Shown here one piece after another: positions 12,958-16,736 of a stretch of DNA of 30,293 nt (position 1 is its first letter; each line of letters opens with the position of its first letter). A program made the translations under genes and the position numbers. Under the pieces are notes generated by a model, which was not told the origin of the DNA, did not search any database, and was given only the letters and a program-made list of their open reading frames with translations. This DNA is from Sphingomonadales bacterium (GTDB lineage Bacteria; Pseudomonadota; Alphaproteobacteria; Sphingomonadales; Sphingomonadaceae): contig JBBQJX010000001.1 in NCBI GenBank assembly GCA_038326295.1, positions 1 through 30,293 of the forward strand, written 5' to 3'.

Positions 12958-13014
12958 CGCGTGCGCGGCGCTGCGACCACTTGCCAAGCGCGTTTATGGA
13001 GGGTTGCATAGGCC

Positions 13015-13260
13015 ATGCCCGATCGCGCCAAGATTCTAGCCCGCATCCTCGAGTTCATCGCGCCCCTGAACAAGGCGGGCGTGGCGGTGGGCGAAACCAC
13101 GCGCTTCGCCGACGACCTGATGTTCGATAGTCTGACCGTCATGGATCTGGTCGCCGGCATCGAGGATGAGTGGAACATCGTGCTGCCGCTGAACGCGCTG
13201 CCCGAACTCGAGACGGTGGGGCAGCTGACCGATGCGGTAACGAGGCTGACCAACAAATGA
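13015..13260 (+). CDS. Specialised acyl carrier protein coupled to SPT
   Basis: FDSL phosphopantetheine-attachment motif; ATGA overlap with spt. Confidence 0.9.
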   Translation: MPDRAKILARILEFIAPLNKAGVAVGETTRFADDLMFDSLTVMDLVAGIEDEWNIVLPLNALPELETVGQLTDAVTRLTNK

Positions 13261-14489
13261 CCGATTTGATGAGCAAGTTCGATGCGCTGATCGCCGAGCG
13301 CGCGTCGCTGGGCCATGCCGGCATCCGCGATCCCTTCTCGATCATCATGAGCGAGGTGCGGTCGCCGACGCAGGCCGTGATCGACGGGCGCGAGACGATC
13401 CTGGTCGGCACCTATAATTACATGGGCATGACGTTCGATGCGGACGTGATGCGCGCGGGCCAGGAGGCGATCGCCAAGTTCGGCGCGGGCACGACGGGCA
13501 GCCGCGTGCTGAACGGCACCTATCAGGGTCACGCCGAATGCGAGGCGGCGTTGCGCGATTTCTATGACATGGCGGGCGCGATCGTGTTCAGCACGGGGTA
13601 CCAGGCCAATCTGGGCGTCATCTCGGCGCTCGCGGTGCGCGGCGAATATGTGATCCTCGATGCGGACAGTCACGCATCGATCTACGATGGCTGCTCGATG
13701 GGCACGGCGGACACGATCCGTTTCAAACACAATAGCCCCGAAGACATGGCGAAGCGGCTGGGCCGCCTGCCTGCGGATGCGGGCAAGCTGGTGGTGCTGG
13801 AGGGCGTCTATTCGATGCTGGGCGATATCGGTCGGCTGAGGGAGATGGTCCCGGCTGCCAAGGAAGCTGGCGCGATGGTGCTGGTGGACGAGGCGCACGC
13901 GATGGGCTTTTACGGGCCCAACGGGCGCGGCGTTTACGAGGAGCAGGGGGTCGCCGACAGCATCGATTTCGTCGTCGGCACCTTCTCCAAAAGCGTCGGC
14001 ACTGTGGGCGGCTTCTGCGTTTCCGATCATCCCAAGCTCGACGTTCTGCGGCTGGTCTCGCGGCCCTACGTGTTCACCGCCTCGCTGCCGCCTACTGTGG
14101 TCGCGATGGCGGAAGCCTCGATCCGCAAGCTCATGCACGCGGCCCCCAAGCGCGCCCGGCTGTGGGAGAACACCCGCGCGCTGCACGGGGGGCTGAAGGC
14201 GCTGGGCTTCGATATCGCCACCGACAAGCCCGAAAGCGCGATCATCGCGGTGCTGATGCCCGATCAGGTGACGACCGCGCGCATGTGGGCAACGCTGCTC
14301 GAGATGGGCGTCTATGTGAATATGGCGCGGCCCCCCGCCACGCCTGCGGGCATGTTCCTGCTGCGCTGCTCGCTCTGCGCCGAGCACACGCCCGGCCAGA
14401 TCGCCACCGTGCTTGGCGCGTTCGAGGTGGCCGCCGCGAAGGTGGGGCTGCCCCTGACCGAAAGTATACGCACGCTCCAGGCCGCCTGA
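13257..14489 (+). CDS. spt: Serine palmitoyltransferase (PLP-dependent alpha-oxoamine synthase)
   Basis: GTYNYMG, GSRVLNGT, HASIYDG, DEAH and GTFSKS (PLP lysine) motifs; adjacent ACP. Confidence 0.9.
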   Translation: MTDLMSKFDALIAERASLGHAGIRDPFSIIMSEVRSPTQAVIDGRETILVGTYNYMGMTFDADVMRAGQEAIAKFGAGTTGSRVLNGTYQGHAECEAALRDFYDMAGAIVFSTGYQANLGVISALAVRGEYVILDADSHASIYDGCSMGTADTIRFKHNSPEDMAKRLGRLPADAGKLVVLEGVYSMLGDIGRLREMVPAAKEAGAMVLVDEAHAMGFYGPNGRGVYEEQGVADSIDFVVGTFSKSVGTVGGFCVSDHPKLDVLRLVSRPYVFTASLPPTVVAMAEASIRKLMHAAPKRARLWENTRALHGGLKALGFDIATDKPESAIIAVLMPDQVTTARMWATLLEMGVYVNMARPPATPAGMFLLRCSLCAEHTPGQIATVLGAFEVAAAKVGLPLTESIRTLQAA

Positions 14490-14509
14490 CCGCCGCACCA
14501 CCGGCGGTC
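14488..14509 (+). terminator. GC-rich hairpin between spt and the tRNA (weak U-tract)
   Basis: GACCGCCG-caccac-CGGCGGTC followed by only TT. Confidence 0.4.
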
Positions 14510-14514
14510 TTCGG

Positions 14515-14607
14515 CCGCCGGTAGCTCAACTGGCAGAGCGGTGGACTTATACTCCATGACCCCCGGATCAGGGGACGATGCGGGTTCGAACCCTGCCCGG
14601 CGGACCA
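14515..14607 (+). tRNA. Atypical tRNA with UAU anticodon (nominally Ile, AUA) and long variable arm
   Basis: CCGCCGG TA GCTC AACTGGCA GAGC G GTGGA CT TAT AC TCCAT [GACCCCCGGATCAGGGGACGAT] GCGGG TTCGAAC CCTGC CCGGCGG A CCA. All four stems pair; G18G19, TTCGA and an encoded CCA are present. Confidence 0.9.
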
Positions 14608-14611
14608 TCTT

Positions 14612-15793
14612 TCAGGCCATTACCGCGCTCGGCGCTCGCGTGGATCGTGAGCGCGACCTCGCCGTCAGGCCGAACAGCGGCCGGAACATCCCGGCGCGCT
14701 CCCCCACCCAGGCGAAAGCGAGGCAGCCGAGCACCGTCACCGACAACAGCACCGCGAACTCGCCCGCCGCGCCCAGCGCGAACGGCTTCACCCAATGTTC
14801 GACAACGATGATGATCGTCTGATGCGCGATGTAGAAGGGGAAGACCGCGCGCGTCAGCCAGCGGCGCGCGGCGCTGTCGCGCTGGAGGTGCGCGGTGGCG
14901 AGGCCGATCAGCCCCAGGATCGTCGCCCACACATCCACCGCGCGCGCGGCCTGTGCGCACAGCGTGATCCACTCGGGCGCGTCGGGGTCGCCGTCGGGGA
15001 AGGACAGGTTGTACGCCATGCGCGCGCCATAGGCGGCGAGCGCGGCAAGCAGGAGCGGCCGCCATGCCGCCGCCGCGCGTGCGAGCAGCGCGGGCGATCG
15101 CGCGAGCCCCATGCCGAACAGGAACAGCGGCAAATAGGCGGCGTGCGCGTACGGATCGTCCAGCAGCCCATGCGTCTCGCCGAAGCGCGGATAGAGCCAG
15201 ACGCGCGTGGCGAATTCCCACGCAAGCGGGAGCGCGTACAGCCGCCAGCCGCCGAACAGTCGGTCGAACACCGCCTGTCCGCGCCGGCCAAGCGCCCACG
15301 CCAGGGCTGCGGCGACCAGCGTATAGACCCAGAGATAGACGACGAACCACAGGTGGTTCCACGTCGGCAGGATGAAGCCCGACTTGTACGCGGCGAAGCT
15401 GGAGCCGAAGACGAAATAGTCGCGCGTCCAGAAGTGCGCGAAGCTTGCGGTGTAGCCCGCTTTCTCGGTCAGCTCGACCCAGGGCTGCGGCGCGACCCAG
15501 AGCGCCATACCGGCGGCGAGCGGGATCAACAGCCTTGCCGAGCGCGAGGCCACAAACGCGCCCGGCGATCGCAGCTTGCCGAGCAGGTGGCGCGAGGCGA
15601 CGCCCGATATCAGGAACAGGAGGCCCAGCCGCCACGGGTTGAGCAGCAGCATCGGCCACTGCACCCAGTCCATCGGATGCGCGGTCTTGATGTGAAAGTC
15701 CCATGGCACGAAGACCATGCCGATATGATAGAATATGAGGAGCCCGAACGCCCCGATGCGAAGCCAATCGAGCCCGTAATGTCGCTGATCCAT
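14612..15793 (-). CDS. Acyltransferase-3 family membrane protein (OpgC/MdoC-like)
   Basis: RHYGLDWLRI....YH, WRLGLLFLISG, WNHLWFVVYL and FPFYIAHQTII motifs. Confidence 0.85.
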   Translation of the reverse strand: MDQRHYGLDWLRIGAFGLLIFYHIGMVFVPWDFHIKTAHPMDWVQWPMLLLNPWRLGLLFLISGVASRHLLGKLRSPGAFVASRSARLLIPLAAGMALWVAPQPWVELTEKAGYTASFAHFWTRDYFVFGSSFAAYKSGFILPTWNHLWFVVYLWVYTLVAAALAWALGRRGQAVFDRLFGGWRLYALPLAWEFATRVWLYPRFGETHGLLDDPYAHAAYLPLFLFGMGLARSPALLARAAAAWRPLLLAALAAYGARMAYNLSFPDGDPDAPEWITLCAQAARAVDVWATILGLIGLATAHLQRDSAARRWLTRAVFPFYIAHQTIIIVVEHWVKPFALGAAGEFAVLLSVTVLGCLAFAWVGERAGMFRPLFGLTARSRSRSTRAPSAVMA

Positions 15794-15887
15794 GCCGCTC
15801 TCCCGCGTTGAAGCTTCGCCCGGCGTAGCCACGGACGGCGGTGCGCGCGCCGCGCAAGGGCCGCGCGGCGACGCCGATGGGACGTGC

Positions 15888-15922
15888 GGGACGAGCGGCG
15901 GCGGGGCAGGGACGAGCGGCGG
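15888..15922 (+). repeat. 14-nt direct repeat with 21-nt period (candidate LytTR operator)
   Basis: GGGACGAGCGGCGG at 15888-15901 and 15909-15922, plus a partial GGGACG at 15879. Confidence 0.6.
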
Positions 15923-15926
15923 GAGT

Positions 15927-16736
15927 GTGGCGCGCTTCTGGCGCACGCACCGGCTGTTCCTCCTGTTCTCGTGGGCGCTGACCGCGACGATCGCGGCGGT
16001 GAACGCGCTGAGCACGCTCAGCGACCGCGCGGGACGCGTCGCCGCGTGGGAGCCTTGGGCGTGGGAGGGGACGAGCGCGATCGGCTGGGCGCTGCTGGTC
16101 CCGGCAATCGGATTCGCGGCGCTGCGCCTGCGCCCGCCGCGCGTCCGGTGGGGCACGGCGGCGGCGGTCCATGCCGGGCTGAGCCTTCCGGCATCGCTCG
16201 CGCATGTGGGCGTGATGGCGGCGCTGCGCAGCGCGATCTACGCGGCGCACGGTGTGGCTTACGATTTTGGCCCTGTCTGGCCGACGCTGGCGTATGAATA
16301 TCGCAAGGACGCGCTGAGCTACGTGCTGGTGACGCTGGGGTTCCTCGCGTGGGACGTGGTAAGGCGCGCGCGTGCGGGGGTCCCTCCGGCCATACCCGCG
16401 TCGTTGACCGATACGCGGCTGACGGTGCGTGACGGCGCACGGACGCATCTGATCGCGCCCGCCGAGATCGGGTATGCGCAGGCGGCGGGCAACTATGTGG
16501 AGCTGCACACCGCGCGCGGGCCCGTGCTGCACCGGACCAGTCTCGCCGCGCTGGAGGTCGAACTGGGCGCGCACGGCTTCGCGCGCGTACACCGGTCGCG
16601 GCTGGTGCGGCTGGCGGCCGTGTGCGCGATCGAGCCGACGGCGTCGGGCGATTTCGAGCTGTTGCTGGAGGACGGCACCAGGATCGGCGGGAGCCGAAGG
16701 TTCCGCAGCGCGCTCGATCCCTACACGAAGCTGTAA
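15927..16736 (+). CDS. Membrane-anchored LytTR-domain transcriptional regulator (start uncertain, 15792-15927)
   Basis: N-terminal TM helices (WEPWAWEGTS, YEYRKD) followed by AAGNYVELH...FARVHRSRLV...GDFELLLEDG..IGGSRRFR. Confidence 0.85.
   Translation: MARFWRTHRLFLLFSWALTATIAAVNALSTLSDRAGRVAAWEPWAWEGTSAIGWALLVPAIGFAALRLRPPRVRWGTAAAVHAGLSLPASLAHVGVMAALRSAIYAAHGVAYDFGPVWPTLAYEYRKDALSYVLVTLGFLAWDVVRRARAGVPPAIPASLTDTRLTVRDGARTHLIAPAEIGYAQAAGNYVELHTARGPVLHRTSLAALEVELGAHGFARVHRSRLVRLAAVCAIEPTASGDFELLLEDGTRIGGSRRFRSALDPYTKL

Follow-up and report, generated by a model that had tools for sequence, protein, structure and literature searches.

The stretch of Sphingomonadales DNA analysed here, 30,293 nucleotides (nt) long, taken from a metagenome-assembled genome and called the window in the following, carries a tRNA gene with a UAU anticodon shortly behind spt, the last gene of acp-spt, and the leader of this tRNA together with the first bases of the tRNA itself (14488-14521) can be drawn as two alternative hairpins. 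A reading of the sequence alone, made before this work, had suggested that a ribosome terminating on spt chooses between these hairpins and thereby couples maturation of the tRNA by RNase P to translation of spt. The question raised by this locus is whether such a switch exists or whether it is only mimicked by the way in which the locus was put together. Our analysis indicates that the structure is real and probably incidental. We lean, by a small measure, towards the view that both hairpins are a by-product of a tRNA block that landed beside an older hairpin and do not form a dedicated switch; the switch is feasible on paper, but comparative support for it is lacking and its logic is ambiguous.

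The sequence elements on which the sequence-only reading was built are indeed present. The heptamer CCGGCGG at 14501-14507 is an exact copy of the 3' acceptor strand of the tRNA (14597-14603) and the exact complement of its 5' strand CCGCCGG (14515-14521). Hairpin A, whose arms GACCGCCG (14488-14495) and CGGCGGTC (14502-14509) form a perfect inverted repeat, overlaps the spt stop codon as had been described, and ends 5 nt upstream of the RNase P cleavage site. Hairpin B was originally drawn with a c-UUCG-g tetraloop at 14509-14514 and U14508 bulged. This form can be confirmed in the sequence, but hairpin B is best read as a 21-nt palindrome, which as a 9-base-pair (bp) stem including a U.G pair and closed by a UUC triloop is the more stable form (-17.8 versus -15.1 kcal/mol). 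Positions 14501-14509 are common to A and B, and the two hairpins are, as proposed, mutually exclusive. As CCGCCGG is its own reverse complement apart from the centre base, A and B are not independent coincidences. Six of the pairs of hairpin A copy acceptor pairs 1-6, which might point to the leader as the relic of a tandem tRNA copy; this was rejected, as no more tRNA-like sequence is found between the arms. In addition to A and B, a third fold, here called fold C, pairs the last spt codons with the start of the tRNA around hairpin A and covers the RNase P site and the tRNA 5' strand, as seen in the minimum free energy (MFE) structures.

The copy of the acceptor strand in the leader is at the same time part of an interrupted direct repeat. 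CCGGCGG-TCTT in the leader is matched at the other end of the tRNA by CCGGCGG-ACCA-TCTT, and the 100-nt block between these CCGGCGG..TCTT repeats (14512-14611) has the tRNA as its sole content. Among the related loci L082-L085 and L077/78, spt converges with the same acyltransferase gene across a spacer of 24 or 22 nt and the block is absent, and subtraction of 14512-14611 from the window leaves a spacer of 22 nt, like that of L082 and L077. The shortened spacer also folds like those of the tRNA-less relatives, with an outer stem across the two stop-codon regions and an inner hairpin (-24.8 versus -24.4 and -25.6 kcal/mol), and hairpin A is the inner hairpin of this restored hairpin between the converging stops.

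We suggest that 14488-14521 may be the seam between two parts of different age. Hairpin A would be the inner part of an older GC-rich hairpin closing the converging spt/acyltransferase pair, and the block 14512-14611 with an accessory tRNA(UAU) would sit in the 3' flank of this older hairpin. The leader copy of the 3' acceptor strand would then be the left copy of the repeat and most likely the microhomology used when the tRNA entered or dropped out, and hairpin B would arise from this repeat automatically, because CCGCCGG is palindromic save for its centre base. The tRNA, for which there is no room for a promoter of its own, would be read through from acp-spt, and RNase P would cut at 14514/14515, leaving the spt message with hairpin A and a 5-nt tail at its end. 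Competition between A, B and C would at most slow folding and cutting, and no dedicated sensor of spt translation would be involved. The sequences, their energies, the repeat and the occurrence among relatives are observed or computed here, whereas the insertion history, the co-transcription and the RNase P cut are steps that we infer. The by-product reading is supported by the dispensability of the tRNA, which is indicated by the presence of TilS and a CAU tRNA and by the loss of the anticodon and variable arms in the one homologous element, that of the Sphingomonadales metagenome-assembled genome G002. It is also supported by a tRNA(UAU) on the metagenome contig L065, which has the same acceptor stem as that of the window behind an unrelated leader.

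Several observations weigh against this interpretation. The homology between the spacers is weak (12 of ~20 positions), G002 lacks the TCTT portion of the repeat, and the block may either have been gained in the lineage of the window or have been lost precisely between the repeats in the others. In addition, the A/B arrangement is rarer than random sequence would give. In this genome of 68% GC, CCGGCGG occurs at 0.35 per kb per strand, and among 20,000 random genomic 25-mers used as a null for the leader, the exact 7-mer was found in 0.7%, a B-like hairpin in 3.6% and an A-like hairpin in 3.0%, while A-like and B-like hairpins that overlap were as rare as 0.045% (9 of 20,000). Comparison of the 35 credible tRNAs of the genome for pairing between leader and acceptor placed the hairpin studied here first (-17.2 versus -11.3 for the next, a gap of ~6 kcal/mol); weaker pairings of the same kind are found in 6 of the 35. 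Finally, G002 has kept the 21-nt palindrome (-15.1, one G.G mismatch) although all three loop bases are changed and the U.G pair is turned into C-G, a pattern that would fit selection on structure, and the tRNA-like parts of the G002 element are identical to those of the window at 46 of 54 positions. This exceeds the identity at four-fold degenerate sites of spt (68%, n=212; P = 0.003), and the G002 element has therefore not simply drifted.

The distribution of the module among relatives is very narrow. Our comparison set comprised ~45 related spt loci, 29 of them from the same family and order and 17 on metagenome contigs encoding the closest spt proteins (87-91% identity), and leader and tRNA were found together in 2 of them, the window and G002. 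No tRNA lies downstream of spt in 28 of the 29 loci from family and order or after spt in any of the 17 metagenome-contig loci, and blastn-short revealed no tRNA remnants in the tRNA-less loci. A pattern scan for the T arm and acceptor through the genome and metagenome contig collections had G002 as its sole match, and the corresponding scan with the 5' half gave one ordinary tRNA(UAU) and unrelated 5' fragments only. Neither plasmids nor phages gave a match by BLAST, a scan of viral sequences gave nothing but a tRNA whose anticodon is UCC, and a search of 400 genomes of the family returned generic tRNA arm matches only. In the spt tree, the window and G002 fall within a well-supported clade of eight but are not sisters, and the element must therefore have been lost several times or have moved between lineages.

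The G002 element (L003:1711-1767) lies 24 nt behind the spt stop codon. Bases 28-47 of the tRNA, which make up the anticodon and variable arms, are lost, whereas the acceptor stem, D arm, T arm and CCA are kept; the element scores 23 bits against the tRNA family RF00005, below the cut-off of 29 bits. Its identification as the bacterial Y RNA-like YrlA (RF02553) was rejected (17.9 bits versus a 69-bit cut-off, E = 0.24). A 7-bp outer stem analogous to fold C is present as well. The leader is identical to that of the window at 17 of 25 positions, which is what four-fold degenerate sites would predict (P(>=17/25) = 0.59), and although all seven bases of CCGGCGG are kept (P = 0.067 at the same rate), the leader as a whole shows no indication of selection. 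Within the 5' acceptor strand there is a single change, C2 to G; it disrupts hairpin B and also acceptor pair 2:71, leaving a G.G mismatch, and no compensating change is found. The comparison with this single homolog gives no sign of conservation or covariation of the switching helices. Lack of conservation of the leader had been named by the sequence-only reading as one of the observations that would refute it, and with the module in 2 of ~45 loci and a leader identity no different from the 68% at four-fold sites, this is nearly the situation encountered. Taken as an evolved regulator, the coupling of tRNA maturation to spt translation finds no backing in these comparisons.

The retention of particular parts in G002 leads to a second explanation, which we consider unlikely but the strongest of the alternatives. 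According to this explanation, the tRNA or tRNA-like element is retained for the sake of the spt mRNA: RNase P would cut at its 5' end and hairpin A would cap the 3' end of the acp-spt mRNA, with decoding being secondary, so that G002 could lose the anticodon arm and yet keep acceptor, D arm, T arm and CCA. The excess identity of the retained parts described above is in line with this, as are a predicted three-way acceptor/D/T fold, a T arm identical at 16 of 17 positions, the retained ACCA and a D stem with changes in both strands (GCTC/GAGC to GCTT/AAGC). The position of hairpin A, which ends just ahead of the cut site, would also suit a protective cap. There are precedents in secG-leuU and in the t-elements and tRNA punctuation of plant mitochondria, tRNAs or tRNA-like structures with the motif GGTTCRANYCC behind reading frames which are thought to direct RNase P to the mRNA's 3' end (PMC1920247). 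The same T-arm motif is found in the window (GGTTCGAACCC) and in G002 (GGTTCGACCCC), and with elements placed 24-25 nt after the stop codon and the non-canonical cloverleaf of the G002 copy, t-elements are the closest analogue for the G002 remnant. They differ in being organellar and in having mapped transcript ends (PMC1920247), while here a bacterial locus is known from the sequence of two genomes and there is no sign that spt needs the element. Almost all close relatives lack it and express spt nevertheless. Moreover, the G.G mismatch at 2:71 and the score of the G002 element below the cut-off count against this explanation, the high identity of this element could predate a recent deletion, and the RNase P cut in E. 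coli destabilises the secG mRNA and does not protect it (PMC2241853).

Before the switch itself is considered, the nature of the tRNA that it would control has to be taken into account. ARAGORN predicts a tRNA of 93 nt, and with 56.6 bits against RF00005, a match to model positions 1-71 in full and a 19-nt insert in the variable region it belongs to the canonical tRNA family. The tRNA has C1:G72, A73 and a class-I type D arm, and its variable region forms a CCCC/GGGG stem with a 7-nt loop, C-G-GAU-C-A. Given the D arm, the long variable region resembles an inserted stretch more than an arm of the Leu/Ser type. An ordinary tRNA(UAU) of 74 nt was found on L065 (6020-6093), with the acceptor stem CCGCCGG/TCGGCGG, A73 and the anticodon loop CTTATAC as in the window, lacking an encoded CCA and lying in low-GC surroundings; it may represent the family from which the tRNA of the window derives. 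Several further metagenome contigs (L066-L073) carry a 26-nt tRNA 5' fragment, consisting of acceptor strand and D arm, right after the 3' end of another tRNA, where no complete tRNA is predicted; such fragments may represent interrupted tRNA genes or integration-site scars. ARAGORN calls in G000 on C255 (Arg-TCG, 93 nt), C278 (Pyl-CTA, 86 nt) and C304 (Thr-TGT, 97 nt), which have no CCA and poor arms, were treated as probable false positives in GC-rich coding sequence.

TilS was found in G000, G001 and G002, and a candidate tRNA-Ile2(CAU) is likely present on C295. With both TilS and a CAU tRNA in the genome, the UAU tRNA is accessory, and AUA is used at 0.83 per 1000 codons. A tRNA-Ile(UAU) is known from Mycoplasma mobile, which lacks TilS (PMC3575796); the tRNA of the window shares its UAU anticodon but occurs in a genome in which TilS is present. 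The V-arm tRNAs of nematodes (PMC3333845) likewise combine a UAU anticodon with a long variable region, from which the tRNA of the window is distinguished by its class-I type D arm.

The third explanation is the switch proposed by the sequence-only reading, which we regard as improbable. A ribosome terminating at the spt stop would melt hairpin A, the freed CCGGCGG would form hairpin B and RNase P maturation would be held back, so that the output of tRNA(UAU) would follow the translation of spt. The energies on which this depends were modelled. Hairpin A has -15.9 kcal/mol and closure of the acceptor stem -15.6 kcal/mol; A with the cloverleaf reaches -52.5 kcal/mol, A with fold C and the arms -48.9 kcal/mol, which is 3.6 above, and B with the four arms -38.8 kcal/mol, about 14 worse than A with the cloverleaf. 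In the free transcript, hairpin A accordingly has a modelled probability of ~1 and B of ~0. With the mRNA blocked up to 14496-14499, as expected for a ribosome whose A site is occupied by the stop codon, the ensemble moves in silico from A to B (P~1), and blocking of 14488-14496 likewise gives hairpin B with P~1.

The shift from A to B under a terminating ribosome is thus reproduced by the model. Without A, hairpin B is slightly better than acceptor closure and forms first. What follows from the shift is less favourable to the proposal. As the 14 kcal/mol are regained after departure of the ribosome, with no irreversible step to follow, B could only delay, acting as a brief trap. In addition, fold A does not simply leave the tRNA 5' strand free, since fold C pairs this strand around A at an energy close to that of A with the cloverleaf. 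Because of this near-equality, a ribosome could help processing of the tRNA as easily as hinder it, by releasing the 5' strand, and the direction of the effect is ambiguous. In detail, positions -1 to -5 stay unpaired next to A; in B, pairing takes in -1/-2 as well as +1 to +7, and in C it takes in -3 to -1 as well as +1 to +7, so that the leader does contain folds which mask or expose the bases at the cleavage site, in silico only.

Structured proximal leaders are poor RNase P substrates, and in designed RNase P riboswitches, where a sequestor hairpin lies over the leader, alternative hairpins mask or expose the cleavage-site bases and a masked leader blocks the enzyme (PMC7897497); folds B and C would cover comparable bases. 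A further study describes inhibition of bacterial RNase P by leader pairing, where cleavage-adjacent bases are masked in the same way (PMC9433436). The designed switches are synthetic, respond to a ligand and have a measured influence on cleavage (PMC7897497), whereas here the trigger would be a ribosome and any effect is that of a model. For the same reason that proximal structure impairs cutting, hairpin A, which ends so close to the cut, provides no clean "on" state. Our literature search found no natural translation-coupled control of RNase P through the leader, only designed switches and in vitro leader pairing.

A possible extension of the switch is that the rare AUA codon located 21 nt before the spt stop is read by the same tRNA, which would give feedback. 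The one ATA among the Ile codons of spt (19 ATC, 0 ATT, 1 ATA), six codons ahead of the stop, speaks for this. At the same position, however, L074 has ATA although it has no tRNA, and L089 has GTA; the codon is therefore not tied to the tRNA, and the feedback idea is weakened accordingly. AUA is, moreover, already covered by TilS and the CAU tRNA. We also note that, in this clade, rare Ile codons occur in the variable C-terminal tail of spt (ATA for the window and L074, ATT for L077, L082 and L079), with ATC only elsewhere in the gene.

In ribosome-mediated attenuation of the trp-operon type, overlapping hairpins are chosen by the position of the ribosome on an upstream reading frame. The locus resembles such systems in its overlapping hairpins and in a rare codon shortly before the stop; it differs in that no terminator with a U tract follows, so that no irreversible termination decision is made, and in that a locus lacking the tRNA has the rare codon as well. 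The rarity of the arrangement by chance and the retention of B in G002 count in favour of the switch; a module limited to two genomes, in one of which the tRNA is broken, a leader that evolves at the synonymous rate and a change at C2 that damages B and acceptor stem alike count against it. The complete version, a natural ribosome-gated RNase P switch in which the acceptor-stem mimic A and the anti-acceptor hairpin B set the maturation of an accessory AUA-reading tRNA and in which AUA feedback might close the loop, is more doubtful still.

That the 21-bp palindrome acts at the DNA level instead, its two 7-bp inverted arms and 7-bp centre forming the core site of a site-specific recombinase that inserted or rearranges DNA at the tRNA boundary, so that the RNA folds would be irrelevant, is the least probable explanation: its 7-7-7 geometry at the exact 5' boundary of the tRNA is kept in G002 with a changed centre, almost every close relative has a different neighbour downstream of spt and an inversion breakpoint of G002 is found here, but no integrase or recombinase gene lies beside the locus in the window or G002, the genome contains just two further CCGGCGG..CCGCCGG inverted pairs, both loose and unrelated in centre and flanks, and the rearrangements lie at the 3' side of the tRNA, not at the palindrome.

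The coordinates of all features are listed in Table 1.

Table 1. Features of the spt-tRNA(UAU) region, numbered from the first base of the window (ORF, open reading frame; PLP, pyridoxal phosphate; aa, amino acids).
Feature	Position	Strand	Description
spt	13257-14489	+	serine palmitoyltransferase-type PLP enzyme, 410 aa; last gene of acp-spt
Sole ATA codon of spt	14466-14468	+	codon 433 of the 439-codon ORF starting at 13170; 6 sense codons before the stop
Fold C (third fold)	14477-14521	+	last spt codons (14477-14486) paired with 14512-14521 around hairpin A
spt stop codon (TGA)	14487-14489	+	final two bases begin hairpin A
Hairpin A	14488-14509	+	perfect 8-bp GC-rich stem, 6-nt loop
Direct repeat, left copy	14501-14511	+	CCGGCGG-TCTT
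Hairpin B	14501-14521	+	21-nt palindrome (7-7-7): leader copy of the 3' acceptor strand, 7 central bases, tRNA 5' acceptor strand
tRNA	14515-14607	+	anticodon UAU, 22-nt variable region, encoded CCA; ARAGORN; Rfam RF00005; near-cloverleaf MFE
Direct repeat, right copy	14597-14611	+	CCGGCGG-ACCA-TCTT (3' acceptor strand, ACCA, TCTT)
Converging acyltransferase_3 gene	14612-16156	-	ORF and Pfam PF01757, E = 2.5e-21

The product of spt matches Pfam Aminotran_1_2 (E = 1.9e-46), and some of its close homologs are named serine palmitoyltransferase. Between spt and the acyltransferase_3 gene, the stop codon of which (14612-14614) follows the CCA end of the tRNA after 4 nt, lies a gap of 122 nt made up of the 25-nt leader, the tRNA and 4 bases. 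A consensus scan of 13000-15200 found no sigma-70-like site, and a promoter of the tRNA inside the 3' end of spt was rejected on the same scan; the tail of spt shows no conservation between the window and G002. Intrinsic terminators were defined by a GC-rich stem with 5 or more T among the next 8 bases, and no terminator-like site was found in 13000-15200, including the region behind the tRNA. Hairpin A was likewise rejected as a classic intrinsic terminator of spt, as it has no U tract and its tail contains 3 T in 8; it is followed by UCUUCGG, which also sets it apart from the terminator of an attenuator. A mobile-element origin of the tRNA was considered and dismissed, since no integrase, transposase or recombinase gene adjoins the tRNA locus in the window or in G002.

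All close relatives (L074-L090, L062) share the synteny of recQ, a Hva1_TUDOR gene, acp and spt. The gene after spt varies nearly every time and can be ClpB, PriA, an acyltransferase, a rhodanese, a molybdopterin oxidoreductase or a low-GC hypothetical gene, and in G002 the recQ block is found inverted ~6.6 kb downstream. The region downstream of spt looks like a rearrangement hot spot.

Among documented systems, the nearest is secG-leuU of E. coli, in which the tRNA lies 14 nt behind the stop codon and a single RNase P cut frees it from the joint transcript, producing the 5' end of the tRNA and the mRNA 3' end at once (PMC2241853). The layout is the same here, with a tRNA on the same strand as spt after a spacer of 25 nt, no promoter by consensus scan between them, and one RNase P cut proposed. 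In secG-leuU, however, co-transcript, cut and a Rho-independent terminator were shown experimentally (PMC2241853), whereas the present locus is known from its sequence and has no terminator-like site; in addition, its spacer forms a stable hairpin, while secG has a short spacer and a rapidly degraded mRNA (PMC2241853).

If the switch were true, it would be the first natural case in which 5' maturation of a tRNA is gated by translation of the upstream gene, as so far seen in designed RNAs only. On the by-product reading, the locus shows that a GC-rich, near-palindromic acceptor stem and a hairpin between convergent genes can mimic such a switch by accident. It is also an example of a small accessory gene for tRNA(UAU) that lies in a 100-nt block flanked by short direct repeats and occurs patchily among close relatives. 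The G002 remnant, which lacks an anticodon arm and exceeds synonymous sites in conservation, offers the more interesting lead with respect to RNA processing.

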